The notes beneath the pieces are model-generated. The model saw only the letters and a list, made by a program, of their open reading frames with translations, was not told where the DNA came from and did no database searches. DNA of 64,000 nucleotides from Nitrosopumilaceae archaeon. Lineage in GTDB: Archaea > Thermoproteota > Nitrososphaeria > Nitrososphaerales > Nitrosopumilaceae. Positions within the stretch are counted from its first letter, which is position 1. Every line of letters starts with the position of its first letter. Where the stretch lies: positions 384,001 through 448,000 of the forward strand of contig OZ242365.1 in NCBI GenBank assembly GCA_965208905.1. The letters are read 5' to 3'. A program made the position numbers and the translations under genes. Below are positions 10,326 to 59,600 of this stretch, piece by piece.

Positions 10326-10382
10326 TATAGTGTAACATTATATCCTGCTTATTATCGGCATCGGTTCGGATTCTTCTTACAG

Positions 10383-11826
10383 GGAACTGTCCCATCTACA
10401 GCGCGTGTCCCAAGACAGCGCGTAGATTGACAGCCTGTTGTACAACAGGTGTTGGTGGCGAACCACCATCCAGAGGAGTTACATTGAGATGTTCTTTGTT
10501 GGTTGGATGTTGACACCCATCCTTTGGACAGCCTGTGCCGGCCATCACGTCATTAGCACTTGGAGGAATCATGCAAGTGCCAAGATGTATCTTTCCTCTC
10601 AAGACCATTCCAGCCTTGGCTTGCAGACTATATGCGGTCTGCGCGCGCTTGCTCCAAGATATTACATCTGGAACGTATAGTATATTGTACGCGGCATTGA
10701 TGTCCGCGTGCATTAATACACCACATGTATGGCACCAAAACCTACTGCTCTTGCGCGTTGTGTTCTTACCACCGCACATACAGCACTGTTGAGATGTACC
10801 ACATTGATTGGTTTCCACATATTCTATACTGTGTTGCAGGGAACTCTGCGCGATGTGGCTTCGCGCCTCACCACATTTGGACTGCCGCATTAGACGGTTC
10901 TTGTTTTTCTGACCCTTCCCTTTTGTGGTTATGGTTCTGAGGTTCATGCCCTCCATGATGATTTTGTCGCACTGCGCGAATAGTTTTTTGGCGAACTTGC
11001 GCAGCCTGTCCGTCTGCCTATTTCCCATCTTACGGTATATACATTGCAGTTGCGCATGCAGGTTGCGCCACTTGTGTGAATAAAGTCTGCAATGAGACAT
11101 CCTTTTCTGTATTCGCGCTATGTTCCGCATGGTATCTTTTTCACGAAGTGTCAGCATCGCAATACTCCCATCCGACTTTCCAACAATGAGTGTGTGCTTG
11201 CCACCCATGTCTATGCCCGCATGTACGCCGGTCGTCTTGCGCTTTGGGATGTGTTCACGTATAGTAATATGCAACTCGAACTGCCTCTCCTTATCACTGT
11301 GGTTTGTAACATCCACAAGCTTGTATAACTGGGATGTATTCGGGAGTGTGCCTTTCTGTAGTTTGAAGGGCTTGTCGCATTTTGGGAAATACACCGTATC
11401 ACCCTTGGACTTCTTACCCAACGGGACCGCGCTGTATAGTGGATATATCTTACGCTCGTACTTTACATGCGCACAACCTTTCATCTTATGACCTTCCCGT
11501 ATGGCGCCGTGAACCCAGGCCTGTGGTATACCCTGACACATGGTGGCTACTTTATTGGTGTCGAACACTGACAGACCGGCCCGACGCGCCTCAATCCCCG
11601 CATTGAGCCATATGTGTGATTCCGAATACATCGAGTCAAAATATCTGGTGAGTTTGGTTGATGTCTTGAGACGGTACCGCAGAGTCCTAACAACGTACTT
11701 TCCACCTTTATACTTCATGTATTATTCACCACTCGGTGATATTTAAGCTTCTTGTTTGCCCAACATCTAAAGCAGGATGTCAATCTACGCGCTGTTTTGG
11801 GACACGCGCTGTTTTGGGACAGTTCA
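10383..11826 (-). mobile_element. TIR-bounded TnpB-only element, family A copy 1
   Basis: Inverted ends GGAACTGTCCCATCTACAGCGCGTGTCCC.. (10383) and ..GGGACACGCGCTGTTTTGGGACAGTTCA (11826); flanks TCTTACAG (10375-10382) and TCCTACAG (11827-11834) form an 8-bp TSD with 1 mismatch. Confidence 0.85.
10396..11718 (-). CDS. tnpB: TnpB RNA-guided endonuclease (family A)
   Basis: RuvC-I GIDMGGK, RuvC-II IMEGMNL, Zn finger TSQQCCMC..CHTC and RuvC-III HADINAAYNI; TTAAATA promoter about 25 bp upstream. Confidence 0.92.
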   Translation of the reverse strand: MKYKGGKYVVRTLRYRLKTSTKLTRYFDSMYSESHIWLNAGIEARRAGLSVFDTNKVATMCQGIPQAWVHGAIREGHKMKGCAHVKYERKIYPLYSAVPLGKKSKGDTVYFPKCDKPFKLQKGTLPNTSQLYKLVDVTNHSDKERQFELHITIREHIPKRKTTGVHAGIDMGGKHTLIVGKSDGSIAMLTLREKDTMRNIARIQKRMSHCRLYSHKWRNLHAQLQCIYRKMGNRQTDRLRKFAKKLFAQCDKIIMEGMNLRTITTKGKGQKNKNRLMRQSKCGEARSHIAQSSLQHSIEYVETNQCGTSQQCCMCGGKNTTRKSSRFWCHTCGVLMHADINAAYNILYVPDVISWSKRAQTAYSLQAKAGMVLRGKIHLGTCMIPPSANDVMAGTGCPKDGCQHPTNKEHLNVTPLDGGSPPTPVVQQAVNLRAVLGHAL

Positions 11827-12305
11827 TCCTACAGACATACAAGGTATTCTAAACTCAAATCTGGTCGTATCAAGGTATAGCTGTAAGGTCTTGGAGTATA
11901 CTACTAAGAGTTTATGCGTAATTGCACAACTTGGCAGTATTGGATCATTAAATCGGTGGCGTACAGCCATTCGTCCCTGCCGCGGAGGGTGACCATTGTA
12001 TCGAACGCGTCCTTTTTGGTCGGCTTTATGTTTTCCCACAAGATTCCGTTAGAGTCCATCATGTTTACCAATCTTGCCGTTTTGTTCCGCTTGTCCTGGT
12101 CGGACTCAAAGTCGCGAAAAATGACCCCGCAGAACAACGTGCGGTACGAAAACCTCAAAGGTGTTGAATCGAGGGTGGTATAGCATGTGCTCTGCCTCCC
12201 GCGCTACATCTTCCTTCATCCTGTGCCAAAGTCTGGCAGGTACTAAGAGATGATCTGTTATGTACGACCTGCTAACTTAATATTGGGAGCGGCGATGAAA
12301 AAGTC

Positions 12306-12977
12306 TTGATGAGTACAAATAATCCGAGGCTGGTACTGGTGGACTTTACTGCTAGACTGCCAGATGGTTCTGTAATCGACACCACACAGAGTGATCACAG
12401 CACAGATATACCCACTAAACCTCTAAGGCCAAGATTAGTATCTTTAGGGCACCCATCATTTGTAGTAGTCAAGGGTTTAGAAAGGGCACTCGAAGATGCC
12501 GAATTAAACGTACCACAAACCATAGAGGTGGAACCAAAGGATGCCTATGGTGAATGGAATCGTAAGTTGCTGCGGATGGTGACCGCCAGAAAACTAGAGG
12601 ATCCAGAAAAATCTGCCGTAGGGGATGAAATAAAGATTAACGGTAGAACAGGATTCATTAAATTTATGAGTTCTGGGAGAGTCCAGGTAGACTACAATCA
12701 CAGGTATGCAGGTAAAAAGATACGATATGACTTTACTGTTACCGACCTTTTGGATGCCGATAAGGCAAAGGTAGAAGCCATCTTGGAAGAGGCTGGTTTT
12801 GGCGATGAGCCCAACTACCAACTTGATGAGGGTTCACTGGAGATATCAATACCAAACGATATGCTTAAGGACGAAAAATTTCAGAACAGGATATTCCAGC
12901 TTCAAATGAACATATTCCGTTTTGTATCAGATCTCAAAGACATACGATTCACAATAGAGTTTACAGCGCCAGCTTAG
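12306..12977 (+). CDS. FKBP-type peptidyl-prolyl isomerase (long archaeal SlyD-like)
   Basis: VIDTT, VKGLERAL, EPKDAYG and VDYNHRYAGK motifs. Confidence 0.88.
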   Translation: MMSTNNPRLVLVDFTARLPDGSVIDTTQSDHSTDIPTKPLRPRLVSLGHPSFVVVKGLERALEDAELNVPQTIEVEPKDAYGEWNRKLLRMVTARKLEDPEKSAVGDEIKINGRTGFIKFMSSGRVQVDYNHRYAGKKIRYDFTVTDLLDADKAKVEAILEEAGFGDEPNYQLDEGSLEISIPNDMLKDEKFQNRIFQLQMNIFRFVSDLKDIRFTIEFTAPA

Positions 12978-14029
12978 ATTATGCCGCTCTCCAGAGCCAG
13001 TCTCTTGGCGGAGGATGCATCTAGTGATACCTCTTTTAGTATCGTGTAGCGCTCTGGCCGTAGGCTCTGGGCCATGCATAGTGCCTGGACAACATCCTCA
13101 TCAGAGAGCCCTATGTCGGCAGCAGTTGTGGGGGCGCCCACATTCTTAAGGGCAGTAGTTATACTCTGATGGTCCAAGCCATGTAGTTTGGCCATTACTA
13201 TAGAGCCAATTCCGCACTTTTCACCGTGCAGTCCCTTCCCTGGAGTTATCTTGTCCAGTGCATGTGAGAAGAGATGCTCAGCTCCCGAACACGGTCGGCT
13301 ACTACCGGCTATACATGATGCCACACCCGCACTGATCAAAGCTTCCACAATAAGACGTACTTCTGGGCCCTTCTCGGCAAAGGTGGCCGCATTCTCCATA
13401 ATCATGTTGGCGCTCATCATGGCCAAGCTGGCAGAGTATCTCCCATAGTACTCGCCGGTTTTTTCGTGAGATAGTTGCCAGTCCTGGACGGCTATTATAT
13501 TAGCCACCAAATCACCACAGCCACTGGCCAGTAATTTGGCAGGGGCGCTCTTTATGATATCCAAATCAACAAACACTCCCAAAGGCGACCTCGCCACTCT
13601 AGAGTGGGGACGATCTCCCTTTACAGACACAAAGGGGCTGGCCATACCATCATGTGAGGCTGCCGTAGGAACACTGACGTATGGTCTATCCAGACTGGTA
13701 GCGGTCATCTTTGCGATATCAACGGACCTGCCTCCGCCTATACCCACCACAACATCTGGTCTATCCTGCGTGATGGCGCTCTTGGCCATCGTAAATGACA
13801 CAGTATTGTTGTCCTGAAAGATATGCCATGTGTATCTTATATTTGCCGCCTCCAGTGAGGCCTCAATTATACTACCTAGAACTCTTTTGACGTTCGCCCC
13901 AGAGACCAACGATGCGCAGCCGCCCTTTATCAAATGTATTAAAAAGTCTCCTATCTCTTGTATGTTATTCTCGCCTATAACTATACGGCGGGGCAGCTCC
14001 ATAATATGAGGGGCATTTGACACCAACAT
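12974..14029 (-). CDS. egsA: sn-glycerol-1-phosphate dehydrogenase
   Basis: GIGGGRSVDIAK, PTAASHDGMASP, SSRPCSGAEH and LHGEKCG motifs. Confidence 0.95.
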   Translation of the reverse strand: MLVSNAPHIMELPRRIVIGENNIQEIGDFLIHLIKGGCASLVSGANVKRVLGSIIEASLEAANIRYTWHIFQDNNTVSFTMAKSAITQDRPDVVVGIGGGRSVDIAKMTATSLDRPYVSVPTAASHDGMASPFVSVKGDRPHSRVARSPLGVFVDLDIIKSAPAKLLASGCGDLVANIIAVQDWQLSHEKTGEYYGRYSASLAMMSANMIMENAATFAEKGPEVRLIVEALISAGVASCIAGSSRPCSGAEHLFSHALDKITPGKGLHGEKCGIGSIVMAKLHGLDHQSITTALKNVGAPTTAADIGLSDEDVVQALCMAQSLRPERYTILKEVSLDASSAKRLALESGII

Positions 14030-14090
14030 ACATCAGAATTATAAAGTTATTTAAAAGGGTGCCATACTAACAGAGTTACAAGGTGAACTT

Positions 14091-14720
14091 TTGGAGATCA
14101 TACAGGATAAAATTCTACATGGGACAACTACAGTTGGCATAAAGGCCGATGAAGGTGTGGTGCTATGCGCCGATATGCGAGCCAGCGCTGGATACTTTAT
14201 CGCCAACAACAACACAATGAAGATACAAAAGATAGACCATCATGCCGGTCTCACATTGGCCGGCGGTGTAGCTGACGCTCAAAATATAGTAGACATCCTT
14301 CGGTATCACGCAAACTTACACCGTCTAACAAATAATATCCCCATACCAATCAGATCATTGGCCCGTCTTACATCCCTACTGTTTCATAGAAATCGTGGAT
14401 ACCCGTTTATCGCGGATATTCTAGTGGGTGGATATGATAGTGACGGAGCTGCCTTATTCAATATAGACATGTTCGGCTCCGTAGAGGAGAAGCCATTTGT
14501 CACCACAGGAAGTGGTTCGCCGGTTGCCTATGGTGTTCTTGAGAACGAGTATACGGACAATTTGACCATACAAGATGCCAAAAGAGTTGCGTTGCAAGCA
14601 GTCAAGGCGGCCATAGTCAGGAATATTGGTACCGGAGATGGCATCAACATTGCCATTATAGATAAAGATGGATTCCGTCTACTAACCGAAGAACGGAAGA
14701 AGGCCATAATCAACCTCTAG
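14091..14720 (+). CDS. psmB: Proteasome subunit beta
   Basis: Short propeptide then HG-TTTVG, ADMRAS, AGGVADAQ and TGSGS. Confidence 0.95.
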   Translation: MEIIQDKILHGTTTVGIKADEGVVLCADMRASAGYFIANNNTMKIQKIDHHAGLTLAGGVADAQNIVDILRYHANLHRLTNNIPIPIRSLARLTSLLFHRNRGYPFIADILVGGYDSDGAALFNIDMFGSVEEKPFVTTGSGSPVAYGVLENEYTDNLTIQDAKRVALQAVKAAIVRNIGTGDGINIAIIDKDGFRLLTEERKKAIINL

Positions 14721-14727
14721 AGGTACA

Positions 14728-18422: not shown

Positions 18423-19864
18423 GGAACTGTCCCATCTACAGCGCGTGTCCCAGGACAGCGCGTAGATTGACATCCTATTTTAGATGTTGGGCAAACAAGA
18501 AGCTTAAATATCATCAAGTGGTAAACCACACATGAAGTACAGAGGCGAAAAGTACGTCATTAGAACTCTTCGGTACCGTCTCAAGACATCAACCAAACTC
18601 ACCAGATATTTTGACTCGATATATTCGGAATCACACATATGGCTCAATGCGGGGATTGAGGCGCGTCGGGCCGGTCTGTCAGTATTCGACACCAACAAAA
18701 TAGCCACCATATGCCAGACAATCCCCCAAGCTTGGGTTCATGGCGCGATACGGGAAGGCCACAAGATGGAGGGATGTACTCACGTAAAGTATAGCAAAAA
18801 GGTTTACCCCCTGTTTAGTAGCGTGCCGCTCGGCAAAAAGTCCAAGGGTGACACGGTGTACTTTCCAAAGTGTGATACTTCTTTCAAACTGCAAAAAGGG
18901 TGTCTACCTGACACATCACAGTCGTATAAAATCGTAGATGTGTCGAATAGTACAGACAGGGAAAGACAGTTCGAGCTGCATGTAACTGTACGTGAACATG
19001 TCCCGGACCGTGTATGTACCGGCATACATGCGGGTATTGACATGGGCGGCAAGCACACACTGATTGTTGGAAAGTCTGACGGTACAATTGATATGCTTAC
19101 ATTGCGCGAGAAGGATACTATACGGAATATCGCACGGATTCAAAAGAAGATGTCCCATTGCAGACTTCACTCCCACAAGTGGTGTACACTGCACGCGCAG
19201 CTGCAAAGCACATACCGCAAGATGGGGAATAGGCAGACAGACAAGCTGCGTAAGTTTGCCAAAAAACTGTTCGCGCAATGCGATAAAATCATCATGGAGG
19301 GGATGAACCTCAGAACCATGACCACAAAAGGGAAGGATCAGAAAAACAAGAACCGTCTAATGCGACAATCAAAATGTGGCGAGGCGCGGGCCTTGCTGGC
19401 GCAACAATCACTTAAACATAACACCGAGTATGTCGAGATTGACCAGAAATATACATCACAGTTATGCTGTGTGTGCGGTAGTAAAAACACGGGGCGCAAA
19501 AGCAGCCAGTTCAGGTGTTATGATTGTAATGTTCTGATGCACGCTGATATAAACGCCGCATTCAACATCCTTTTCACTTTTCGTACTGTACAGTGGAGCA
19601 AGCGGGTGCAAGCCGTTTACGCACTGTACAACAAGGCCGGAATGGTCTTGAGAGGGAAGATACATCTCGCGACACTCACTATACCCAGTGTCGTTGGTGA
19701 TGTGATGGCCGGTACAGGCTGTCCAAAGGATGGGCGTCAAAGTCCAACCAACAAGGAACGTCTCAATGGAGCTCCTCTGGATGGTAATTTGCCAACATCT
19801 GTGTTAACACAGGATGTCAATCAACGCGCTGTCTTGGGACACGCGCTGTAGATAGGACAGTTCC
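18423..19864 (+). mobile_element. TIR-bounded TnpB-only element, family A copy 2
   Basis: About 50-bp inverted ends GGAACTGTCCCATCTACAGCGCG.. (18423) and ..CGCGCTGTAGATAGGACAGTTCC (19864); flanks do not match, so no TSD is retained. Confidence 0.85.
18532..19851 (+). CDS. tnpB: TnpB RNA-guided endonuclease (family A)
   Basis: GIDMGGK / IMEGMNL / TSQLCCVC..CYDC / HADINAAFNI; paralog of 10396-11718. Confidence 0.92.
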   Translation: MKYRGEKYVIRTLRYRLKTSTKLTRYFDSIYSESHIWLNAGIEARRAGLSVFDTNKIATICQTIPQAWVHGAIREGHKMEGCTHVKYSKKVYPLFSSVPLGKKSKGDTVYFPKCDTSFKLQKGCLPDTSQSYKIVDVSNSTDRERQFELHVTVREHVPDRVCTGIHAGIDMGGKHTLIVGKSDGTIDMLTLREKDTIRNIARIQKKMSHCRLHSHKWCTLHAQLQSTYRKMGNRQTDKLRKFAKKLFAQCDKIIMEGMNLRTMTTKGKDQKNKNRLMRQSKCGEARALLAQQSLKHNTEYVEIDQKYTSQLCCVCGSKNTGRKSSQFRCYDCNVLMHADINAAFNILFTFRTVQWSKRVQAVYALYNKAGMVLRGKIHLATLTIPSVVGDVMAGTGCPKDGRQSPTNKERLNGAPLDGNLPTSVLTQDVNQRAVLGHAL

Positions 19865-19883
19865 CACAAATTAGAATATTCAC

Positions 19884-31529: not shown

Positions 31530-31596
31530 GAGTATGTAATGCTATATTATCACTTTTTTATGATTCTTTTTTTGACTCTGGTGCCACTGACCTTAA

Positions 31597-33068
31597 GGGA
31601 ATTATATACAAAAGTACACAGCCTCGGCTGTACACTCATGCCTTTTCTGACGGCTTTTTTGTATACAGTGGAGCATAGAAGGTGTTGGCTTGTAGTCCTC
31701 CTTGTGCCCCGGCCGTCTTAGGACGACCTTCCCCGCCGCCCTATGCAGAATATTCCAGGCGGCATTGACATCCGCGTGGAATACCCTGGTACAATTAGTG
31801 CAAATGAATTTGTCGCGTGATATACGCGACTCTGAATCTACGTAACCACACACATGGCACGTCTGGCTCGTATATTTGGCCGATGCCCCCAACAGCGGTA
31901 TGTTGTGCATCTCACACCACTGCGCAAGCTTGCGCAGGAACTCCCCAACATGGTTCTCCCGCATTGAACGGTTCATGGCGCGTTTGTAATTCCCGCCATA
32001 CGTGGTCATATCCTGTATAGAGAGTGATTCGGCCACGACTGCGTCCACACCATTGGTTATCTGTACAATCGTCTGATTTATGGTGTTCGCAGCTATGTTG
32101 TTGGCCTTCCTGTATAGCCGCTTTATTTGGTCATTCAATATATGCCACTTCCGGCCATGTCGTGTCTTGCGGTCGCGCAAACTCTTTAGCGCGTCAATCT
32201 CCCGCAGGATTGCTCTATGGCGGGTGTTGTGTATTGTAACATTACCATTTGTGTCGACAGTGACGGCGAGATGCTTGCCTCCCACATCGACACCCCGTAT
32301 TGTACCAGTATTGCGGTGCGACTCTACCGGTTCATGTATGGCAATATGCAGCTCAAACATGTGGTCTGACGGCTTTGTATGCTTGTCCACCCGTTTGGTG
32401 ACATCAACTATCTTGAATGAGCGCATGTCCCATAATACATTGATGGGCTTGGCGGTCTCTACAATACCATATCCGGGGATATGTATGGTGTGCTCGCCTT
32501 TCTGTATAGGCGGTGTAACGGAACTCAATATGATGCGGCCGTCTTTGCGGCGGTATGGCGCGTGGCCGGAGTTGTCATCTACAACTCTTCCACATGCGAT
32601 AGAGGCATCCTGTATGGCGCCCCTACCAAACGATGTGGGGCACTCGCGCAGCCATGCATGTTCAGCGCGCCACTCCGTAAGCTGCTTGAACATGCCGTAC
32701 TTTAATGCCCTCTTTGACGGCCCAAAGTCATATGTCTGATAGTCATCTTCCAGTGTACCTGATGTAAAATCGTCCAGTGTGTTTGGTAGTTTGAAGGGCT
32801 GTAGTATGTCCACTACCACCCTCCCCATATATTCGCCACCAAACAAATACTCTGATACGGCCCGGTTGTACACATATCTTGACGCATGATTCGTGCGGTG
32901 CGCCCACTTGGCGAATGACACATCCCTTCGTAGCGGTACCTTGACTACCCGTATCATAATGTGTAATACGGTATACTGGTATTTAAGGAGAGTTGCTGTA
33001 TGGACGCGTTCCGTGGTTCAGGAAGTAACTCTCAGAATCGGGGTTGTGTACTTTTGTATATAATTCCC
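31597..33068 (-). mobile_element. TIR-bounded TnpB-only element, family B (IS1595/ISNwi1-like ends)
   Basis: Perfect 24-bp TIR GGGAATTATATACAAAAGTACACA (31597-31620 and 33045-33068); flanks GACCTTAA (31589-31596) and TACCTTAA (33069-33076) form an 8-bp TSD with 1 mismatch. Confidence 0.9.
31602..32957 (-). CDS. tnpB: TnpB RNA-guided endonuclease (family B)
   Basis: RYVYN, RuvC-I GVDVGGK, RuvC-II VAESLSI, TSQTCHVC..CTNC and RuvC-III HADVNAAWNI; TTAAATA promoter about 23 bp upstream. Confidence 0.92.
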   Translation of the reverse strand: MIRVVKVPLRRDVSFAKWAHRTNHASRYVYNRAVSEYLFGGEYMGRVVVDILQPFKLPNTLDDFTSGTLEDDYQTYDFGPSKRALKYGMFKQLTEWRAEHAWLRECPTSFGRGAIQDASIACGRVVDDNSGHAPYRRKDGRIILSSVTPPIQKGEHTIHIPGYGIVETAKPINVLWDMRSFKIVDVTKRVDKHTKPSDHMFELHIAIHEPVESHRNTGTIRGVDVGGKHLAVTVDTNGNVTIHNTRHRAILREIDALKSLRDRKTRHGRKWHILNDQIKRLYRKANNIAANTINQTIVQITNGVDAVVAESLSIQDMTTYGGNYKRAMNRSMRENHVGEFLRKLAQWCEMHNIPLLGASAKYTSQTCHVCGYVDSESRISRDKFICTNCTRVFHADVNAAWNILHRAAGKVVLRRPGHKEDYKPTPSMLHCIQKSRQKRHECTAEAVYFCI

Positions 33069-33106
33069 TACCTTAACAATATAAGACATAATACAAAATA
33101 TAGCAT

Positions 33107-34834
33107 ATGGTTGAGGAGGAACTATCCCAAATCTCAATAACGGAGTTTGAGAATATATGGATGCTCTTTCTGTCTTCTACATCGATACAGGTTGCTTTTG
33201 TAGTACTGATATCGGGTATGATTGGTATAATTAGCGGGTATAGAAAGTTCTCCAATTGGGTTACCGGTCAAAAATTCTACTATGAGAGACCACATGCGTC
33301 ACGGTTCCTGCGGCGGGTTGCCTTACCATTCTTTGCCATCGCACTTATCACATCATTTAATGTGTATACACAATTTACTTTGAGTAGTGCAGAGACGCAT
33401 AATGTGGCCGCCGAGGAGACACTATCAAAGATACTGAATACCTTCAATATACTGGTTATAGGGTATACTGTAGCACATCTTGTTCCTATAATACTGAACA
33501 AGATTGAGAAGAGAAAGCTGGAAGAGTTGGATTTTGATATATGGTTTGAGATGCGTGGGTTTGTTGATGACGCTGATGGGTTCTTCCATAAATTATACAG
33601 ATGGGTTCCGCCCCGAACCGCCCCCGAAGAGATAGGCGAAGAGAGATTCACTGAACTACTCAAAACACCCGAAGGCATCTTGTATCTAGAAGCGTTTAGG
33701 ACATCAAAGGGGGTCTCTATAGGTAGTTATGAGGAACTACAGGATGATACATTTGAGACCTGGAAGAAGTCTGAGAGAAGAAAGTTTGAAAAATATTACA
33801 ACGACTGCATAAGTGGGGACAACCAGTCGGGCAGAAAACTAAAACCCAACTCCATACCACGCGAGATATTCTCCATAGATATATGGCGGGAAGAGAAACG
33901 CCTGAACGGTTATGATTATGTGGTGCCAGGTGCCCGACCCCCTGGCCACGCAACAAGAAAGAAGAAGGATGCGCCCATGTCCTTACAACGCATCTTACCA
34001 TTGGTTATATTCGCCGCCGTTGGATTGGGAGTTGCTGCCTCATGGGGCATAGACTTGTTTGTTCTGGCTACTGCCACCGGCGGCTTCTCCATAGGGTTGG
34101 GACTGGCACTACAAGAGACGATGCAGAACTACTTTGCGTATATAACTATACGGAAAGACAAGATAGTCGTTGAGGGTGACCGTATAAAGTTGGAGAGCGG
34201 TTACAATGGGAATGTGCACAAGATAACTCCACGAGTTACATATATCATGGACCCACTATACGAGTCTGTCGCCATAATTCCGACCAGGCAGCTGGTTGCC
34301 ACCCAGATTGTAAACTATACAAAAGAACACCATGTGGTTCCGGCAGTGGTATCTGTGGGGGTATCATACTTGAACAACCCCCGTCAGGTGGCATCTATTC
34401 TACATAAGGTGGGAGTACGCGCCATGCGTGAAATTGTCGATGACAAAGGCAGGCACATCATACGACAACATCGATGTCCAAACTTGGATGAAAACAAGGC
34501 CAGTTGTGGTTGTGATCGAGACGTACACGAAAATCTGTCACAACCTATTGTACGCTTTTCGAACTTTGGCGACTCGGCTTTGGACTTTACTGTGCTGGTT
34601 TACGTTCGTAACTATGGATCCCAGTTCAAGACTAAAACTGAGATGCGGGTTATGATATATGAAGAGTTTGAAAAATACGACATTCGTATACCCTGGCCTA
34701 TCCGAACCATATACAACAGCAATGAGGCTCAGGAACGTGAAGATATAGCCAAACGTGATAAAGCCCGTGAAAAGTTGATGAAAGAGTATAATGTGTTTGA
34801 TATTGTTCCGAGTGATGATGGTTCAACAGAATAG
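33107..34834 (+). CDS. MscS-family mechanosensitive channel (large)
   Basis: TM helices, GLGLALQETMQNYFA, EGDRI, VGVSY, FGDSALDF and IRIPWP motifs. Confidence 0.9.
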   Translation: MVEEELSQISITEFENIWMLFLSSTSIQVAFVVLISGMIGIISGYRKFSNWVTGQKFYYERPHASRFLRRVALPFFAIALITSFNVYTQFTLSSAETHNVAAEETLSKILNTFNILVIGYTVAHLVPIILNKIEKRKLEELDFDIWFEMRGFVDDADGFFHKLYRWVPPRTAPEEIGEERFTELLKTPEGILYLEAFRTSKGVSIGSYEELQDDTFETWKKSERRKFEKYYNDCISGDNQSGRKLKPNSIPREIFSIDIWREEKRLNGYDYVVPGARPPGHATRKKKDAPMSLQRILPLVIFAAVGLGVAASWGIDLFVLATATGGFSIGLGLALQETMQNYFAYITIRKDKIVVEGDRIKLESGYNGNVHKITPRVTYIMDPLYESVAIIPTRQLVATQIVNYTKEHHVVPAVVSVGVSYLNNPRQVASILHKVGVRAMREIVDDKGRHIIRQHRCPNLDENKASCGCDRDVHENLSQPIVRFSNFGDSALDFTVLVYVRNYGSQFKTKTEMRVMIYEEFEKYDIRIPWPIRTIYNSNEAQEREDIAKRDKAREKLMKEYNVFDIVPSDDGSTE

Positions 34835-34839
34835 TCATG

Positions 34840-36352
34840 GGTTCCTACTGCAAGCACGGGGGTTCCCGCATCCACAATACATCACACGTCACGCCAGAGG
34901 ACGACGGTGCATGATACATCTCGTTCCCCGGTCTGTGCTTGACGTTTCTCAGGGGAGCTGATGCGAGAACCCTCCACGTCCAGACACCCCTTAACATGGG
35001 TGCTGCCGGTATGGTCCGGCAAGTTTCGTAAGTTTAGTTGACCATGCATGGCCTCTGAGCCCAACTTTTTTAGCCCCGCATCCTCTATGTTTGAGCCCGC
35101 ATTACAGTCGGCATGATACGTGTAGCCACACTTCTTACACAAGAATTTTCTACCATCCCGGTTATCCTTATGTGTATAACCGCACGAGTAGCACCGTTGA
35201 CTTGTATACGCTGCCGCAACCCAAATTATTTCGCCAGCCAACTTGTACGCCAACAGTAATGCCAACAGCCCCCAGCACTGCTCCAGGATGGCCTTATTGA
35301 GACCAGATTTCTGCGCAACGTTTTTGCCGGGGTTTTCTTCCGTACCCTTGGCGGACTTTGCCATGTTTTGTATAGGAAGTTTTTCAAAGGCCGCATGTGT
35401 GGTGCTGTCCGATATAACGCGTGATATTTTATGCGCGGTGGTCTTTCGAATATTTGCGGCTTTGCGTTTGTTCTTGGCGGCACGTTTGCTGGCTTTGGCC
35501 CACCGTCGGGAGCCGGGCTTACGATTCGTATGGTTGGGTTTCTGCCTGCGTGACGCTATCTTTTGTGCCTTAGAGGCTGTTTTTCGGCGTTGTTCATGCG
35601 GCGTGCCACCTTTTCGGGTATTATCATCACACAGTCAGGTGTGGCCACATTACCGACATTCCGGTCTATACCAATAACAGTCGGTTCCGTCACGGTTGGC
35701 TTCTCATCGGGTATATCACAAGATATGGTAATCCTCCACCCACCATCCGGTAGTTGAAACAGTTGTGCCGTCTTGTATCGGTAATTCAAGACGGGAAACT
35801 CCCGCGACAGTTTAACCTCGCCCATCTTAGCTATCTTGACTGTACGTTCGCCAGTGAAGCGCGCTTGACCAATAGTGCCATCATGCGTTATTGTAAACGG
35901 GATGGAGATGTGACCTCCATATTTCTTAAAGTGCGGTTCACCAAACTCCGCCTTAGGTTTGATGTTGACAGCCTTCAGCTTCTCTGTTTCCACATATTGG
36001 TCATAATGCCTGCCCAAGTCATGTAATACTTGGCGCGTCACCCCGGATATGGATTGACGCATCCAACGCGGACCTGAATCGTTGCGCAAGTCCGTATACC
36101 ACGCGTTTATCCTACCACGCGTAGTGTTGACCCTCCCAGCTCGACGGTACTCTTCCTTGAAGGTTCCCAATAGTTTGTTATACACGTACCTGTCCACGCC
36201 GGCCTGTCTGGCCAACATCTCCTTCTTGAACCCTTTACGGAATCTAACGCCGAATGTGTATGTGCGTAGTACCATTAGCGTACAGTACGGTCTACATGTT
36301 TAAAAAGATAGTTGAGATGTGATACATAACACCCGTCCTTGCGGGAGGAACC
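34840..36352 (-). mobile_element. TIR-bounded TnpB-only element, family C copy 1
   Basis: Ends GGTTCCTACTGCAAGCACGGG (34840) and CCCGTCCTTGCGGGAGGAACC (36352); flanks TAGTCATG (34832-34839) and TAATCATG (36353-36360) form an 8-bp TSD with 1 mismatch. Confidence 0.88.
34882..36275 (-). pseudogene. tnpB: Frameshifted tnpB (family C)
   Basis: ORFs 35556-36275 and 34882-35364 are the two halves of the 58076-59509 protein; an A5 run (35580-35584) replaces the A6 run of the intact copy. Confidence 0.9.
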
Positions 36353-36397
36353 TAATCATGCAAGATTTATGAATCCGCCAAATAATACGTCATACTA

Positions 36398-37311: not shown

Positions 37312-37370
37312 GCCAGGCTGTCAACCTACGCGCATGTCTGTGGGACAAGCGCTGTAGATGGGACAGTTCC
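37312..37370 (+). mobile_element. Solo family-A terminal repeat
   Basis: CAGGCTGTCAACCTACGCGCATGTCTGTGGGACAAGCGCTGTAGATGGGACAGTTCC matches the family A TIR; no partner end or ORF. Confidence 0.75.
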
Positions 37371-37408: not shown

Positions 37409-37482
37409 GGGCCGGTCGTCTAGTCGGTTAGGATACCGCCTCGACACGGCGGTGGTCGTGAGTTCGAATCTCATCCGGCCCA
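37409..37482 (+). tRNA. tRNA-Val(GAC)
   Basis: Acceptor GGGCCGG/CCGGCCC, anticodon stem CCGCC/GGCGG with loop TCGACAC, T-loop TTCGAAT, followed by CCA. Confidence 0.9.
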
Positions 37483-40309: not shown

Positions 40310-40743
40310 GGTTCTTATTGCAAACATGGGTATTGAGAGCGCCACACCACAAACGCCTTTTTAAGCACCCAAACCGTACTGTACACTAATAATTCCATGC
40401 ATCTACACTTTCGGCGTTAGATTCCGTAAAGGGTTCAACATGGGAATATTGGAGCGGCAGTTGGGTATGGACAGGTACGCGCATAACAAACTGTTAGAAA
40501 CCTTCAAGGAGGAATATCGTAGAACTGGTAGAGTGAATACGACGTGTGGCAGGATAAACGCCTGGTATATTGACCTGCGCAACACATCAGGACATCTACA
40601 TCAAATTATGGCACAGGCTGTCCAAAGGACGGGCGTCAAACCCCGGCCAACAAGGAACATCTCATGGAATCTCCTCTGGATGGCAACTCGCCAACATTTG
40701 TCGTACGGCAGGCTGTCATATCCCTCTAAGATTTGACAGCTCC
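40310..40743 (+). mobile_element. Chimeric deleted TnpB element (family C left part joined to family A right part)
   Basis: GGTTCTTATTGCAAACATGGG (family C TIR) at 40310, family C tnpB 5' fragment ~40400-40590, family A 3' region ~40610-40715, ends GACAGCTCC. Confidence 0.75.
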
Positions 40744-52687: not shown

Positions 52688-52718
52688 TACCTTAAATAAA
52701 GAATCTACATTATACAGT

Positions 52719-54597: not shown

Positions 54598-55907
54598 AGT
54601 ATATATTTTTGGCTACCACACTATTATTCACATCTGTATGTGGGCTAGCCTTTGCGCAAGGCTTTGGTGGCTTTGGTGACTCTCCATTTGAGCGTGACTT
54701 TGGTGATATCAAGTATCTGGATTCATACTTTGGCACCTTTGAGTCGAAGGTTGAGGTGTCTCCTGGAGACAAGAACGTACCGTTTACAGTAGTGTTTGCG
54801 AATGTGGGAAGCCATGACATTACTGGCATAAGAGGAGAGATGTCACTACCATACGGATTTAATCCTACTCAAGGAGAAGGACTTGTGATTCATGCAGACA
54901 GCAATACCAACTCGAGGGCCGGAGATACATTCTATCTGACATTCTACATGGATATAGAGCCGTATGTAAACATACAAGAGTATCCGGCGGCAGTAAAGTT
55001 GGAGTTCGCACGGTTGCGCGAGTCAGGCACACGGAACGACTTTTTTGACTTTTACTTTTCAGTACCCGGCAGCGGAATTCTGCAGGTAAAGACATCCGAC
55101 CCATTTTTGATGTCACTACAGACCAACACGGTACAGGTACAGATAATCAACAATGGAACTGCAACACTATCCAACACTGCTGTCTCTACACTGGGAGATC
55201 AAGTTTTAATGGCGCAGAATGTCAACTCCAATCTTGAAAATGTGGTAATATACGAGTCCGACTGGGAGTTGGGTAATATAGCCCCATTCTCCTCTAAATA
55301 TATCGATATTGAGCTGTACATACCAGAGACGCTAAAGGGCGAAACACTACAACTTCCCTTGGTGGTGGAGTATATTGATGCTAATGGTGAGAGAATCAGT
55401 GATACTCGAATAGTCGACTTTTATATTCGAGGACTTGTTGACATCTCTGTTTATGGTATTGATACAATTACCATATCTGATACTATGATGGTGATAGGTG
55501 AGATAATCAATGAAGGAAATGAGGATGCGCTCTTTGGGTTTGTAACATTAGAGCCGCTGGGAACCTCAAACATATCTACCCAGACCCAGTTTATAGACGA
55601 GATAGATACAAGCTCACCAGTACCATTTAACATACCACTCTCTTTTGATGGTGACCCAATGTACGGAGAGCATGACATACAGATAACCGTCCGATATAAA
55701 GACGACATACGCGAAGAGCACTTTTTGACACAGGCGGCTAGCATAAATGTTGCATCCCCTCCGCCAACTGATACCAACAGAGTAATCCCGGGTTTGGATG
55801 TAGATTCGCCCATCAATGACTCATCTCTACTATTAATTATAACTGGTATTGTTGTTGTTGCAGTGGGTGTGGGTGTGGCCGTAGCAGTGCGCCGCCGCCG
55901 TAACTAG
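54594..55907 (+). CDS. COG1361-like S-layer-related exported protein
   Basis: Signal peptide, repeated Ig-like NxG motifs, C-terminal TM and RRRR; follows ABC genes as is typical. Confidence 0.75.
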   Translation: MKYIFLATTLLFTSVCGLAFAQGFGGFGDSPFERDFGDIKYLDSYFGTFESKVEVSPGDKNVPFTVVFANVGSHDITGIRGEMSLPYGFNPTQGEGLVIHADSNTNSRAGDTFYLTFYMDIEPYVNIQEYPAAVKLEFARLRESGTRNDFFDFYFSVPGSGILQVKTSDPFLMSLQTNTVQVQIINNGTATLSNTAVSTLGDQVLMAQNVNSNLENVVIYESDWELGNIAPFSSKYIDIELYIPETLKGETLQLPLVVEYIDANGERISDTRIVDFYIRGLVDISVYGIDTITISDTMMVIGEIINEGNEDALFGFVTLEPLGTSNISTQTQFIDEIDTSSPVPFNIPLSFDGDPMYGEHDIQITVRYKDDIREEHFLTQAASINVASPPPTDTNRVIPGLDVDSPINDSSLLLIITGIVVVAVGVGVAVAVRRRRN

Positions 55908-56018
55908 ATTATCGACCATACCGTATACACATCATACCAAGAGGTGGTAGGAGATTGAGTGTGTACGCTCCCCAAATGGAGCAGATATATAATTATCCAC
56001 TAAACATTACACGGTATA

Positions 56019-56696
56019 ATGAGACGTATAGTCATAAAATTATCTGGGCGTGTCTTTGGGGATAATGACGTATACTCCCTACATGACTATATTGACATAT
56101 TTGGTGCCATTAATGATGTACAGCCTATAATAATTGCTGGCGGCGGCGCCACAGCTCGTCATTACATTAACCGTGCTCGCGCATCTGGAGCTGATGAGTC
56201 CACACTTGATGAGTTGGGCATTGAAGTGTCTCGCCTTAATGCCAAATTACTGATATGCGCAGCAGGTGATAGGGCATATCCACATGTGCCTCTTACACTG
56301 GCAGATGTTCAAACGGCAACTGCGAGTGGCCTTATGGTGTTGAGTGGAGGCCTATATCCAGGTCAGAGCACAAATGGTACAGCAGCACTTATTGCTGAAC
56401 GAGTGGGCGCCTCAATCTTTCTAAATGCGACAGATGTGGATGGTGTCTATGACTCGGATCCAAATGTAAACAAGGATGCCAAGATCTTTAAAACCATAAC
56501 AATATCAAAACTTCAAGACATATTGATCAACAATACATCTGTTGCAGGTGGATATGACTTGATGGATATAATAGCTCTAAAGACGATTCAACGCTCCTCC
56601 ATACAGACACGAATAATACGTGCTACACCCAGCAACCTAAAGAATATACTACAAGGTAAACAGACCGATATGGGCACATTGATACTGCCTGACTAG
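56019..56696 (+). CDS. pyrH: UMP kinase
   Basis: VIKLSG, AGGGATARHYI, PGQSTN, ATDVDGVY..DP and GYDLMD motifs. Confidence 0.93.
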   Translation: MRRIVIKLSGRVFGDNDVYSLHDYIDIFGAINDVQPIIIAGGGATARHYINRARASGADESTLDELGIEVSRLNAKLLICAAGDRAYPHVPLTLADVQTATASGLMVLSGGLYPGQSTNGTAALIAERVGASIFLNATDVDGVYDSDPNVNKDAKIFKTITISKLQDILINNTSVAGGYDLMDIIALKTIQRSSIQTRIIRATPSNLKNILQGKQTDMGTLILPD

Positions 56697-57040
56697 ATAC
56701 TTACTACCGGATACTCCCGAGCCCACATTGTTACCTTATCACCACCAAACTGCTCTGTACCATTTTGGAGTAATTTTTTGTATGTATCTACAGCCTCGTC
56801 TTGTTCGGCGGCCTTTGATTGAGCTTTTGTATAACCATCTTCATCAACCACTACCACCACATAGCCATCATCACTTATAATTACTGCACCATACTCTTCT
56901 TCTCCCACGGGCACAAACTTCCCAGAGACTTTTTTGGTGGTGAGGGTCAACATGGAGAAGCCACCAGCTTCAAATAACTTCATCTGGGCCTTGGACGCGC
57001 GCCTCTTTCCTTCTTGAACTGCTTGAAAGTATTGCAACAA
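56693..57040 (-). CDS. Conserved hypothetical protein
   Basis: 115-aa ORF with plausible composition; TATATA upstream. Confidence 0.65.
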   Translation of the reverse strand: MLQYFQAVQEGKRRASKAQMKLFEAGGFSMLTLTTKKVSGKFVPVGEEEYGAVIISDDGYVVVVVDEDGYTKAQSKAAEQDEAVDTYKKLLQNGTEQFGGDKVTMWAREYPVVSI

Positions 57041-57241
57041 AGTAATGACACTATTACGCTATATATCTTACAGTTTGCGATCTACCATCAAAGATATGTA
57101 GAAAAAAGATCAGACTAGATGACTCTGGTTTGACACGGTATCCTGCAGGTCTAGCTCCCAAGTTTACATCACATATCACGTATAGTCTTTGCTGAATCAT
57201 ATCCTGCTAACATTTATCAGAACCTCAACCACATGTAATGT

Positions 57242-57772
57242 ATGAATCCCAAGGTGTTTGTAGGTGTGGCCATAGCTGCAGTCTTAGTGGGGGTAGCTTT
57301 GGTGGTTACTAGTGGCCCTGCACTACTTGAGGGATTTATGCCCAATCAACAACCAGCCACAGTTGTACCTGTCAATGTGAATGTAGATGATGTCAGTACA
57401 ATCTCACTAAATCAGGATGGTGCTACATTGGAGATTGTAATAAGAGTCTCAAATCCCAACCCCAAAGCTGCTATACTCTCACTGGTAAAGTATCAGATAT
57501 ATCAAGATGATGTACGAGTTGTAGCTGGCGAAATTGGAGAGAGGTCTGGGGGAATGGTGGATGCATCAGACTATTACACCATACTGAGTGATGGTAGTGT
57601 TGTTCTACGAGATAGGATTGATCTAGTTAACACTGGCGGAGCTCCTGAGTTTTGGGCGGCTTTGACATCTGGCGACATAACATGGTTTGTAACCGGTGAG
57701 GCGTTCTTTAACTTGAGTTCAATGACCTCTGGGCAGGAGAACATTATACTGTTTGAACAGACTGTGGACTGA
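57242..57772 (+). CDS. LEA_2-like membrane-anchored protein
   Basis: N-terminal TM helix; VSNPNP..VKYQIY..VVAGE pattern. Confidence 0.7.
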   Translation: MNPKVFVGVAIAAVLVGVALVVTSGPALLEGFMPNQQPATVVPVNVNVDDVSTISLNQDGATLEIVIRVSNPNPKAAILSLVKYQIYQDDVRVVAGEIGERSGGMVDASDYYTILSDGSVVLRDRIDLVNTGGAPEFWAALTSGDITWFVTGEAFFNLSSMTSGQENIILFEQTVD

Positions 57773-57843
57773 TTTTTAATTATATATTTTCAGACTCAAA
57801 TTAATCTACAAAACCTTAAAAGGATGAACAGTAGATAATTCTC

Positions 57844-57954
57844 ATGGCAGAAGCAGGAATGGCAGCTTATGGCGCCACAATAGGAGTTGCGATTGCACTT
57901 GCAGTAGTATGTTTTGCCCTTCGCGGCAAAGGACATCCTGACCCATTAGACTAA
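57844..57954 (+). CDS. Small single-TM protein (36 aa, absent from the ORF track)
   Basis: MAEAGMAAYGATIGVAIALAVVCFALRGKGHPDPLD; TTAAAA box about 25 bp upstream and T-rich terminator-like run downstream. Confidence 0.6.
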   Translation: MAEAGMAAYGATIGVAIALAVVCFALRGKGHPDPLD

Positions 57955-57998
57955 CCGTAGCCAAAACTCTTTTTTACTTTTATAATATTAAGGTCTCC

Positions 57999-59514
57999 GG
58001 TTCCTCCCGCAAGGACGGGTGCCATATATGACACCTCAACTATCTTTTTAAACATGTAGACCGTACTGTACGCTAATGGTACTACGCACATACACATTCG
58101 GCGTTAGATTCCGTAAAGGGTTCAAGAAAGAGATGTTGGCCAGACAGGCCGGCATGGACAGGTACGTGCATAACAAACTATTGGGAACCTTCAAGGAAGA
58201 GTACCGTCGAGCTGGGAGGGTCAACACTACGCGTGGTAGGATAAACACATGGTATACGGACTTACGCAACAATTCTGGTCCGAGTTGGATGCGTCAATCC
58301 ATATCCGGGGTGACGCGCCAAATATTATATGACTTGGGCAGGCATTATGACCAATATGTGGAAACAGAGAAGCTGAAGGCTGTCAACATCAAACCTAAGG
58401 CGGAGTTTGGTGAACCGCACTTTAAGAAATATGGAGGTCACATCTCCATCCCGTTGACGATAACACATGATGGTACCGTCGGCCAAGCGCGCTTCACCGA
58501 TACACGTACAATCAAGATAGCCAAGATGGGCGAGGCTAAACTGTCGCGGGAGTTTCCCGTCTTGAATTACCGATACAAGACGGCCCAACTATTTCAACTA
58601 CCGGATGGTGGGTGGAGGATTACCATATCCTGCGATATACCAGATGAGAAGCCAACCGTGACCGAGCAGACTGTTATTGGTATAGACCGGAATGTTGGTA
58701 ACGTGGCCACACCTGACTGTGTAATAATGGTACCCGAAAAGGTGGCACGCCGCATGAACAACGCCGAAAAAACAGCCTCTAAGGCAGAAAAGATAGCGTC
58801 ACGCAGGCATAAACCGGACTGTGTAAATCGTAAGCCCGGCTCCCGACGGTGGGCCAAAGCCGCCAAGAGGGTTGCCAAGAACAAACACAAAGCTGCAAAC
58901 ATGCGAAAGACCACCGCGCATAAAATATCACGCGTTATATCGGATAGCACCACACATGCAGCCTTTGAGAAACTTCCTATACAAAACATGACAAAGTCCG
59001 CCAAAGGTACGGAAGAAAACCCCGGCAAAAACGTTGCGCAGAAATCTGGTCTCAATAAGGCCATCCTGGAGCAGTGCTGGGGGCTGTTGGCATTACTGTT
59101 GGCGTACAAGTTGACTGGCGAAATAATTTGGGTTGCGGCAGCATATACAAGCCAACGGTGCTACTCGTGTGGTTATACACATAAGGATAACCGGGATGGT
59201 AGACGGTTCTTGTGTAAGGAGTGTGGTTACACGTATCATGCCGACTGTAATGCGGGCTCAAACATAGAGGATGTGGGGCTGAAGAAACTCGGTCCGGGGG
59301 CTAGGCATGGTCAACTAAACTTACGAAACTTGCCGGACCATACCGGCAGCACCCATTGTACAAGGGGCGTCTGGACGTGGAGGGTTCTTGCGTTAGCTCC
59401 CCTGAGAAGCGTCAAGCACAGACCGGGGAACGAGATGCTCTATACACCGTCGTCCTCTGGTGTGACGTGTAATGTATTGTGGATGCGGGAGCCCCCATGC
59501 TTGCAGTAGGAACC
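57999..59514 (+). mobile_element. TIR-bounded TnpB-only element, family C copy 2 (intact)
   Basis: Ends GGTTCCTCCCGCAAGGACGGG (57999) and CCCATGCTTGCAGTAGGAACC (59514); perfect 8-bp TSD AGGTCTCC (57991-57998 and 59515-59522). Confidence 0.92.
58076..59509 (+). CDS. tnpB: TnpB RNA-guided endonuclease (family C)
   Basis: RYVHN, RuvC-I GIDRN, RuvC-II AFEKL, GLNKAILEQCWG, TSQRCYSC..CKEC and RuvC-III HADCNA; TTTAAA promoter about 25 bp upstream. Confidence 0.92.
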   Translation: MVLRTYTFGVRFRKGFKKEMLARQAGMDRYVHNKLLGTFKEEYRRAGRVNTTRGRINTWYTDLRNNSGPSWMRQSISGVTRQILYDLGRHYDQYVETEKLKAVNIKPKAEFGEPHFKKYGGHISIPLTITHDGTVGQARFTDTRTIKIAKMGEAKLSREFPVLNYRYKTAQLFQLPDGGWRITISCDIPDEKPTVTEQTVIGIDRNVGNVATPDCVIMVPEKVARRMNNAEKTASKAEKIASRRHKPDCVNRKPGSRRWAKAAKRVAKNKHKAANMRKTTAHKISRVISDSTTHAAFEKLPIQNMTKSAKGTEENPGKNVAQKSGLNKAILEQCWGLLALLLAYKLTGEIIWVAAAYTSQRCYSCGYTHKDNRDGRRFLCKECGYTYHADCNAGSNIEDVGLKKLGPGARHGQLNLRNLPDHTGSTHCTRGVWTWRVLALAPLRSVKHRPGNEMLYTPSSSGVTCNVLWMREPPCLQ

Positions 59515-59600
59515 AGGTCTCCTCAAAGGTGACATGTCAACTATACACTATTGGCAGCTATCATAAATACGGTATACTCATACGCTTGAGACGGTACATC

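Follow-up and report, generated by a model that had tools for sequence, protein, structure and literature searches.

In a 64,000-nucleotide stretch of DNA from a Nitrosopumilaceae archaeon (coordinates 384001-448000 of its single-contig, 2.21-Mb genome; hereafter the window), five transposable elements, E1 to E5, each carry tnpB as their sole gene between terminal inverted repeats (TIRs), and four of them are flanked by 8-bp target site duplications (TSDs). An original prediction, made from the letters of the window, had placed the five elements where the open reading frames (ORFs) and Pfam matches also put them, with one of them frameshifted (E4; Table 1). It had further proposed that DDE transposases mobilise these elements in trans, and shared termini, TSDs and empty sites in a related genome now support that proposal. 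On this sequence evidence we consider it highly probable that they are TnpB-only cassettes which DDE transposases with the same ends have moved.

Results

TnpB-only elements in the window

Pfam domains OrfB_IS605 and/or Cas12f1-like_TNB were found in the ORFs of all five elements. PF07282 scored above its cut-off in E1, E2, E3, E5 and the C-terminal frame of E4, whose broken tnpB consists of a 160-aa and a 239-aa frame, and PF01385 did so in E1 and E5, with E2 and E3 just below. On the NCBIfam model guided_TnpB (NF040570, cut-off 100) the proteins of E2, E3 and E5 reached 104.8, 122.8 and 145.5 bits, respectively, and the E5 protein matches the solved ISDra2 TnpB chains over its full length. 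The predicted RuvC D-E-D triad was seen in an alignment of the four TnpB lineages of the genome (families A to D, see below), where the RuvC-III D (D390), the four Cys of a CxxC...CxxC finger and an NA..NI motif are invariant and where a RuvC-I D (G[IV]D) and a RuvC-II E are found in each lineage.

An inverted-repeat search gave TIRs of 45 nt at 91% for E1, 60 nt at 92% for E2 and 31 nt at 94% for E3 (GGGAATTATATACAAAAGTACACA). The E1 repeat spans about 49 nt and is built from two direct units of about 18 nt (TGTCCCAnnnACAGCGCG). The TIRs of E4 (19/23; GGTTCCTCCCGCAAGGACGGGTG / GGTTCCTACTGCAAGCACGGGGG) and E5 (18/23) are imperfect and were missed by this search, becoming visible once the copies were aligned. 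Ends of the form GG...CC had been expected throughout and were found in four of the five, E1 having GG...CA with one end that reads TGAACTG. The four TSDs are those listed in the prediction, one at 8/8 and three at 7/8; no duplication was found when the flanks of E2 were compared (2/8), and its right flank is another repeated sequence. The coding sequence runs very close to the end of the element: the tnpB stop lies 5 nt from the terminus in both E3, where it falls inside the TIR, and E5. Each element had also been credited with a TATA box of its own about 25 bp before the ATG; putative boxes of this kind, A/T-rich and TATA-like (TTAAATA, TTTTTAAA), were recognised some 20-30 bp upstream of the ATG in E2, E3 and E5.

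Copies across the genome

The genome holds 75 matches to the TNB domain, 58 of them within open frames of at least 400 aa (hand count). BLAST searches with the window elements showed copies that are 72-84% identical in family A (E1 and E2), 78-92% in family B (E3) and 86-95% in family C (E4 and E5). The three families of the prediction were thus an undercount, since a fourth, family D, comprises 12 full copies of about 1615 bp which encode proteins of 505-569 aa and have TIRs of almost perfectly C type, and additional TnpB lineages have the terminal word of family B, a different subterminal sequence and perfect TSDs. In each family, TIR and tnpB are shared across the copies as one unit. All TIR pairs 1.3-1.7 kb apart enclose tnpB alone. 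Where the TSDs are intact, tnpB ends 5-55 nt short of the element terminus, its stop codon falling in the TIR or shortly ahead of it.

TSDs and flanking motifs were counted in 41 curated full-length copies of the four TnpB lineages (13 of B, 8 of C, 12 of D and 8 of A). As predicted, these other copies have the same ends and 8-bp duplications: the TSDs match at 8/8 in 25 copies, at 7/8 in 6 and at fewer positions in 10, i.e., at 7/8 or better in 31/41. By lineage, the numbers at 8/8, 7/8 and fewer are 9, 1 and 3 for family B, 4, 2 and 2 for family C, 8, 0 and 4 for family D (one of these four fits a 9-bp TSD at 8/9) and 4, 3 and 1 for the A lineage. A crude automatic scan found a TIR (at least 12/14) together with a TSD (at least 7/8) at 29/74 TnpB loci, a figure that serves as a lower bound because such scans are noisy and many of their rows register inside the TIR, which leads to an undercount.

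Shortened forms also occur. Derivatives of 355-641 bp from families C, D and B, resembling MITEs (miniature inverted-repeat transposable elements), have lost internal sequence and kept both TIRs (539996-540350, 626859-627354, 999540-1000124 and 2089312-2089952), and three short derivatives of the C/D type retain TSDs too. One family B copy (1972621-1975198) is interrupted by an IS630 insertion.

Empty sites in a related genome

Insertion sites were compared with a genome of the same genus, G005, whose sequence matches the flanks at about 97% identity. As the prediction expected, four of the five elements have counterparts there with one 8-mer and without a TIR. The flanks of E3, E4 and E5 meet in G005 with an 8-bp overlap of the two alignments; the E3 site has a single TACCTTAA, the E4 site a single TAGTCATG and the E5 site a single AGGTGTCC after TTG, all of them free of TIR sequence. 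The E1 site likewise has a single TCTTACAA and no TIR, with a 3-nt indel adjoining it in more diverged sequence. At the E2 site no empty site could be read in G005, the right flank of E2 being another repeat.

These sites bear directly on whether the window elements are canonical IS200/IS605 elements of the IS1341 type that landed inside MITEs already present. Solo TnpB elements are classically of the IS1341 type in the sections of the literature cited here (PMC3119063, PMC4810608), which speaks for such a reading. The G005 sites have one 8-mer and no residual TIR, so this alternative was rejected; where MITEs had preceded the nuclease, the repeats would be expected to remain. In addition, E1, E2, E3 and E5 have their tnpB stop 5-13 nt from the end, too close for an IS605 right end to fit, with the ORF reaching into the TIR; a Y1 transposase is missing from the genome, and TIR and tnpB are shared as one unit in each family. 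We therefore regard nested IS605 elements as extremely improbable.

E5 or part of it is present in 20 of the 24 sequencing runs listed, several of which are labelled as sponge or marine metagenomes, and contigs bridge both of its junctions in two DNA runs. Among the 4 runs examined more closely no empty E5 allele was found, and no contig joins across E5. One loose-end contig has an additional flank, ...CATTG followed by 8 nt, preceding a family C end; the remaining loose-end consensuses, being mixtures (agreement 0.59-0.63), were left out of the counts. The nearest public relatives of the family B TnpB come from a record labelled as a metagenome-assembled genome (MAG) of Cenarchaeum sp., and the related public loci, four in number, are all fragments of one MAG without usable ends.

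Transposases and shared ends

All ORFs of the genome were clustered and scanned with Pfam and NCBIfam to obtain its transposase complement. Neither Y1 TnpA (PF01797) nor serine recombinase (PF00239) gave a single match in this 99.6%-complete genome, a result in favour of the prediction, whereas the same searches were positive in 6/14 and 12/14 control genomes, respectively. According to the parts of the literature consulted (PMC4810608, PMC3119063, PMC13565253), IS200/IS605 and IS607 elements have neither TIRs nor TSDs. The TnpB cassettes differ from the former, which depend on Y1 TnpA, in their TIRs of 23-60 nt and 8-bp TSDs as well as in the missing Y1 gene, and from the latter in the missing serine recombinase TnpA.

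Several transposase families were found. The copies of IS481-like (27 ORFs), IS630 (19) and IS3-like (14) elements are about 99.9% identical, which suggests a recent burst; IS5- and IS4-like genes and two IS1595 groups are also present. As the prediction requires, DDE elements with matching termini were found, themselves with 8-bp TSDs, in two groups, IS1595 for family B and an IS6-related group for families A, C and D.

Four elements of the IS1595 family, 2131-2837 bp long, have the termini GGGAATTATA(T/G) and perfect 8-bp TSDs in all four cases (AAAATTAT twice, AAAAAAAT and CAATTTTA). The transposase at 1213001-1213972, the one copy scanned, scored 176 bits on NF033547 (cut-off 75), and the other copies are 74-99.7% identical to its product by BLASTP. 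Family B shares its termini with these IS1595 elements (GGGAATTATATA): an alignment of 12 ends, from TnpB cassettes and IS1595 elements, is invariant in its first 10 columns, with some pairs identical up to 13 nt. Longer TIR pairs with the IS1595-type end enclose the transposase and other cargo. Two to three of the four elements carry as passenger an ORF for a fused N6/N4 DNA methylase-HNH endonuclease. The 2131-bp type has a 121-aa ORF without a family match.

The IS6-related partner is represented by 13 related genes for a DDE protein of 356-501 aa, 12 of which cluster at 60% identity or more. Four of five partner proteins score above the gathering threshold of 27 on Pfam DDE_Tnp_IS240 (43.2, 31.8 and 30.4 among them), and the copy from the sister genome G004 lies below it (20.1). 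On the NCBIfam IS6 model these proteins reach 58-92 bits, below the cut-off of 125. They are 390-500 aa long and possess, in addition, a zinc domain of the IS1/IS1595 type, joined in some of them by a SWIM finger, and their public homologues are named only 'transposase-like protein'. The ends of the IS6-like elements were located by motif searches, a simple inverted-repeat search having missed them. Family-A-like ends (TGAACTGT..(A/G)GCGCCTGT..) bound a 34.9-kb and a 14.7-kb element with the DDE gene at one end (Table 1); they share the two-unit build of the E1 and E2 TIRs, and 21 of about 40 TIR columns are invariant with them. End subtype GGAACTGGTGCATCTTGGTGACC is common to one TnpB cassette and two DDE elements of about 3.6-4 kb, and subtype TGGGCTGGTAACT likewise occurs on both TnpB and DDE elements.

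For families C and D, the end consensus is GGTTCCTCCCGCAA[A/G]G.CGGGTG, as in a DDE insertion sequence of 1.44-1.48 kb. In this genome a DDE element at 926302-927837 has C/D-type TIRs around a three-frame wreck that is 25-30% identical to the 13-gene DDE group. The C/D-type element has 21 matches in the sister genome G009, and intact copies of 1442-1482 bp in G009 and G004 encode a DDE protein of 393-396 aa between TIRs GGTTCCTCCCGCAAAGACGGGTG. A perfect 8-bp TSD was found in 8/16 sister-genome elements examined, with ends GGTTCC.... The wrecked copy is itself part of a composite (924780-927837) in which a family C copy, 8 bp and the DDE element follow each other, with four TIRs in all and TTAAACTC flanking both sides, as if the whole had moved as a unit through its two outer ends.

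Such sharing of ends has to be set against the possibility that TnpB itself, or a host enzyme that went unrecognised, does the transposing, and that the resemblance to DDE ends is convergent or incidental. For families C and D the genome lacks an intact cognate transposase, and mobile solo tnpB without functional tnpA was noted in haloarchaea in the older literature, as far as the cited sections go (PMC3119063). Against this, the ends are common over 10-40 nt to DDE elements that make the same 8-bp TSD, and a TnpB cassette and a DDE element appear to have moved as one unit in the composite. No strand-transfer activity is known for TnpB, a RuvC nuclease. Transposition by TnpB or a host enzyme thus seems very improbable to us.

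Mobilisation in trans by DDE transposases remains the reading we prefer, and three observations count against it. First, the TnpB copies diverge by about 5-27% within families, as compared with the near-identity of the IS481, IS630 and IS3 copies, and for this reason the cassettes are not the elements that are currently bursting. Second, the identity between family B and IS1595 ends is confined to the outer 10-13 nt. Third, the sole C/D-ended DDE copy in this genome is frameshifted, and intact partners were seen only in other species.

Exchange of nucleases and ends

The four TnpB lineages are mutually 20-26% identical, and their relationships do not follow those of their ends. One end type is common to families C and D and another to family B and at least two other lineages; conversely, A-lineage TnpBs are paired with at least four end subtypes. 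From end types shared across lineages and several end types per lineage it follows that TnpB has been captured repeatedly, and the multiple origin put forward in the prediction as a possibility is thereby supported at the sequence level. Direct evidence comes from G005, where a TnpB whose DNA is about 80% identical to that of family C is bounded by a different 24-nt TIR (GGTTCTCGGACAAACTCTGGTCAA) with 8-bp TSDs, a cassette in which the nuclease gene would have moved between end types.

A motif on one side of the insertion site

When every copy was oriented by tnpB and the flanks were compared, a short motif appeared immediately before the upstream TSD. In family D, WTA stands at positions -3 to -1 in 11/12 copies (12/12 if one TSD is taken as 9 bp), and the first TSD base is C in seven of the eight copies with an 8/8 TSD. 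Family C has TT at -3 and -2 in 7/8 copies and TT[A/G] in 6/8; the eighth copy adjoins a DDE element, and TTA stands in front of the composite that the two form. Family B has ATNG at -4 to -1 in 8/13 copies and G at -1 in 11/13. On the mirror side the motifs were found in 1/12 (D), 0/8 (C) and 0/13 (B) copies. With word frequencies in the genome of 0.040, 0.067 and 0.018 for the D, C and B motifs, the binomial tails are 4e-15, 5e-8 and 1e-11, respectively, values which are too low, since the copies counted had also supplied the words.

The motif is a feature of the target, not of the element, since it is present in the empty sites of G005 (ATTG for E3, CTTG for E4 and ATTG for E5, the occupied E5 site having ATTA). 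In these sites the order is motif, 8-mer and flank; in the occupied site, the 3' end of tnpB reads through the TIR into the second 8-mer and the flank. IS605-type TnpB uses as its transposon-associated motif (TAM) the target word of the transposon, according to the parts of a 2026 review cited here (PMC13565253). Because the geometry matches the TAM and guide target of IS605-type TnpB, we propose that the one-sided motif may be the TAM of the TnpB encoded alongside it, a proposal to which we give even chances.

The same motif could instead reflect a target preference of the DDE transposase or its transpososome, with TnpB as passive cargo or in some other role. The subterminal sequences of families C and D differ, so different transposase variants could serve them, and elements of IS1595 type without TnpB, which are too few to decide (about 7), have G at -1 in one orientation in 5/7. 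However, the motif is one-sided and oriented with tnpB, with 0-1 matches on the mirror side, whereas target preferences of DDE transposases are usually symmetric. It differs between C and D despite common ends with the same terminal 23 nt, and it stays TT[A/G] where the C lineage has another TIR, with TTA in 3/3 of the C-lineage cassettes of G005 that have the different repeat. Finally, it is lacking in eight autonomous DDE copies that have the C/D-type TIR together with perfect TSDs: one side shows WTA in 0/8 and TT[A/G] in 1/8, the other 1/8 and 2/8, respectively. A transposase preference fits less well because the motif follows the TnpB lineage, is one-sided and is missing from autonomous copies, and we consider it unlikely.

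The identification as a TAM has weak points of its own beyond the post hoc definition of the words. In the A lineage the signal is weak (G at -2 in 6/8, p = 0.003), the autonomous-DDE control was drawn from other genomes and comprises 8 usable sites only, and distant relatives in G006 and G005 fit only in part (ATG|, GCGA|, TTC| and CATA|). The RNA-structure and diversity scans of the 3' end, in turn, are only weakly suggestive of an omega-RNA. In families B and D, nucleotide diversity was somewhat lower over the last ~200 nt than in the rest of the element, and RNAalifold predicted structures in the last 260 nt, where the copies are too alike for a covariation test. An Rfam scan of the window returned two tRNAs and no other RNA family.

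Contigs from RNA libraries match internal parts of family C at 90-99% identity; they define no RNA ends, and transcription is not thereby proven. These contigs are nevertheless among the points that argue against TnpBs domesticated as guide-RNA-directed repressors or for defence and lying in dead transposons. Exapted TnpBs exist, and the copies here are fairly diverged, both of which would suit domestication. In contrast, the catalytic D-E-D triad and the zinc finger are retained in all four lineages, the dozens of copies each lie inside TIRs with a TSD, and four of the insertions are absent from the 97%-identical relative. Domestication is accordingly a most unlikely account of these genes.

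Other features

Two remnants of the same families lie in the window besides the five elements (Table 1). The solo family-A-type TIR sits 39 bp upstream of a tRNA gene (37409-37482).

Elsewhere in the genome, the IS6-related DDE family also builds cargo transposons of 3.6-35 kb. The cargo of the 14.7-kb element, which resembles a mobile defence island, includes a DNA methylase, a Hypoth_Ymh protein, DUF5131, a SocA/Panacea antitoxin and nested IS110 and rve insertion sequences. Two DDE copies of about 3.6-4 kb (1337692-1341644 and 1851328-1854929) have swapped flanking 8-mers, with GTCCGTTG to the left of one and to the right of the other and AAAATAAC the opposite way round, which fits a chromosomal inversion of about 0.5 Mb through recombination between them. 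In G009, the 1.44-kb IS6-like element has an antisense frame of 428-436 aa without a family match opposite the 396-aa DDE gene, probably an artefact of composition.

Table 1. TnpB-only elements and related features; positions of the first seven rows are those of the window and the remainder those of the genome.
Feature	Position	Strand	tnpB	TSD or ends
E1, family A, TnpB-only	10383..11826	-	10396-11718 (-), 440 aa	7/8: TCTTACAG (10375-10382) / TCCTACAG (11827-11834)
E2, family A, TnpB-only	18423..19864	+	18532-19851 (+), 439 aa	
E3, family B, TnpB-only	31597..33068	-	31602-32957 (-), 451 aa	7/8: GACCTTAA (31589-31596) / TACCTTAA (33069-33076)
E4, family C, tnpB frameshifted	34840..36352	-	frames 35556-36275 and 34882-35364	7/8: TAGTCATG (34832-34839) / TAATCATG (36353-36360)
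E5, family C, intact tnpB	57999..59514	+	58076-59509 (+), 477 aa	8/8: AGGTCTCC (57991-57998 and 59515-59522)
Solo family-A-type TIR, 57 nt, ~93% to E1/E2 ends, remnant end	37314..37370	-		
Cluster of decayed family C (~77% identity) and family A (~79-81%) fragments	40344..40743			one A-lineage end GGAGCTGTCAAATC
IS1595-family element	675271-677401			
IS1595-family element	1211856-1213986			
IS1595-family element	1043578-1046414			
IS1595-family element	1770047-1772736			
34.9-kb transposon	1251085-1285965			perfect 8-bp TSD GATACGTC
14.7-kb transposon	1695225-1709895			end 8-mers do not match

Discussion

The arrangement suggested by these observations can be put together as follows. The five elements are non-autonomous DDE-type transposons in which tnpB is the sole gene and which lack a transposase of their own. 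Transposases of two DDE groups would act in trans on the shared TIRs, making target cuts with an 8-bp stagger: family B and at least two further lineages would use IS1595 termini, family A several subtypes of the ends found in an unnamed DDE family that is related to IS6 and has a zinc domain, and families C and D ends of the same DDE group. TnpB would be an active RNA-guided nuclease, with an omega-RNA that overlaps the 3' end of the ORF and the 3' TIR and a guide consisting of the adjacent TSD copy and flank. The putative TAM would be the motif immediately 5' of the other TSD copy, i.e., WTA for family D, TTG/TTA for family C and ATNG for family B. The nuclease could then cut an empty or precisely healed site (TAM, 8-mer and flank), and the cassette would be recopied by recombination. 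The bias toward the motif could arise because only insertions behind a TAM persist or because TnpB helps in target choice. That the TAM of TnpB governs the final location of DDE-mobilised cassettes is offered tentatively and with somewhat less than even confidence. On one route, TnpB bound at the element's 3' end would assist the transpososome in picking a target immediately behind a TAM; on the other, only such insertions would survive, as TnpB could again cut a site that is empty or healed by microhomology and so enforce recopying.

The original prediction held that capture of this nuclease by DDE transposons is known mainly for Fanzors. A DDE-associated lifestyle is not unprecedented in prokaryotes, as six DDE-associated TnpB branches with inverted terminal repeats, together with solo TnpBs that have the same ends, were reported in 2023 and mobilisation in trans was inferred (Altae-Tran et al., 2023, PMC10691335, main text). 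ISL2, IS630 and IS1031 are given as DDE partners of prokaryotic TnpB in the cited parts of the 2026 review, where the association is called rare (PMC13565253). The present cassettes are like the 2023 branches in that TnpB lies within DDE inverted repeats and the 3' end of tnpB is near the transposon end. They differ in that tnpB and a DDE gene are not found within one TIR pair, save in the composite at 924780-927837, and in their partners, IS1595 and an IS6-related group, which the cited section of that study does not name (its supplements may name more). They differ further in the non-specific 8-mer of the TSD, in the dozens of cassettes within one TnpA-less archaeal genome and in the lineage-specific motif outside the TSD.

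Fanzors, the eukaryotic homologues of TnpB that occur in DDE, Helitron and Crypton transposons, are, like the nucleases of the cassettes described here, RNA-guided and located between the TIRs of cut-and-paste transposons. Their guide RNA overlaps the TIR, and in some the TAM agrees with the insertion site, as described in the sections cited (PMC10530073); the 5' TSD has been read as part of the TAM (PMC13565253, in part). Fanzors belong to eukaryotes or their viruses, whereas the present host is an archaeon and the proteins score as ordinary TnpB (NF040570). The Fanzor TSD is a fixed short word (TA or TTAA) usable as a TAM; here the TSD is variable and the motif stands just outside it. With IS1341-type solo TnpB elements the cassettes have in common a length of about 1.4-1.6 kb, a single tnpB and insertion 3' of a short motif on the side upstream of tnpB.

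The comparison extends to transposons that carry no nuclease of this kind. The IS1595 elements of the genome are like the IS1595 family with passenger genes (the ISNwi1-like group of ISfinder) in their 8-bp TSD, termini GGGAATTAT and passengers (here the DNA methylase-HNH fusion). Unlike such elements, the family B cassettes lost or never had a transposase and carry tnpB. Like MITEs and other non-autonomous derivatives of insertion sequences, the cassettes would obtain their transposase in trans via shared TIRs, and unlike MITEs they are full-size and coding, with a nuclease cargo that may itself promote retention. Among named archaeal insertion sequences, ISM1, an element of 1.3-1.6 kb with a TIR, an 8-bp TSD and one ORF, is a possible relative. 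ISH6, with GGT ends and an 8-bp TSD, was considered as well and set aside, as titles and abstracts in the literature place it with the Mutator/IS256 superfamily and the models that fit the present DDE proteins best are IS6 and rve. ISfinder may already include, under ISNCY, 'transposases' that resemble TnpB and have TIRs.

A literature search, with the 2023 supplements and ISfinder outside its scope, found no paper on IS1595- or IS6-linked TnpB cassettes or on a motif outside the TSD. The partnership with IS1595 and with an unnamed IS6-related family, the variable 8-bp TSD and the large TnpB complement of a genome without TnpA appear to be new, as do the modular exchange of nuclease lineages and ends and the putative TAM outside the TSD.

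In the accepted view, scarless excision is what makes TnpB worthwhile for IS605 and IS607 elements. DDE partners have been argued to be rare in prokaryotes on the grounds that their excision already leaves a break and that TnpB needs a fixed TAM, in the passages cited (PMC13565253). The present genome is a large-scale natural counter-example, with dozens of intact tnpB genes, at least 31 full-length DDE-type cassettes (TSD at 7/8 or better), two unrelated DDE partner groups and no TnpA. The motif beside a variable TSD opens to direct test the long-standing question of how a TAM-dependent nuclease serves a transposon without target specificity, and the four compact TnpB lineages come with predicted TAMs and guide positions for genome-editing screens.

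In summary, if the proposed arrangement is true, an RNA-guided nuclease would be coupled with cut-and-paste DDE transposition in an archaeon, without CRISPR, and this coupling would have been assembled several times. The modular exchange of nucleases and ends shows how Fanzor-like arrangements can arise.

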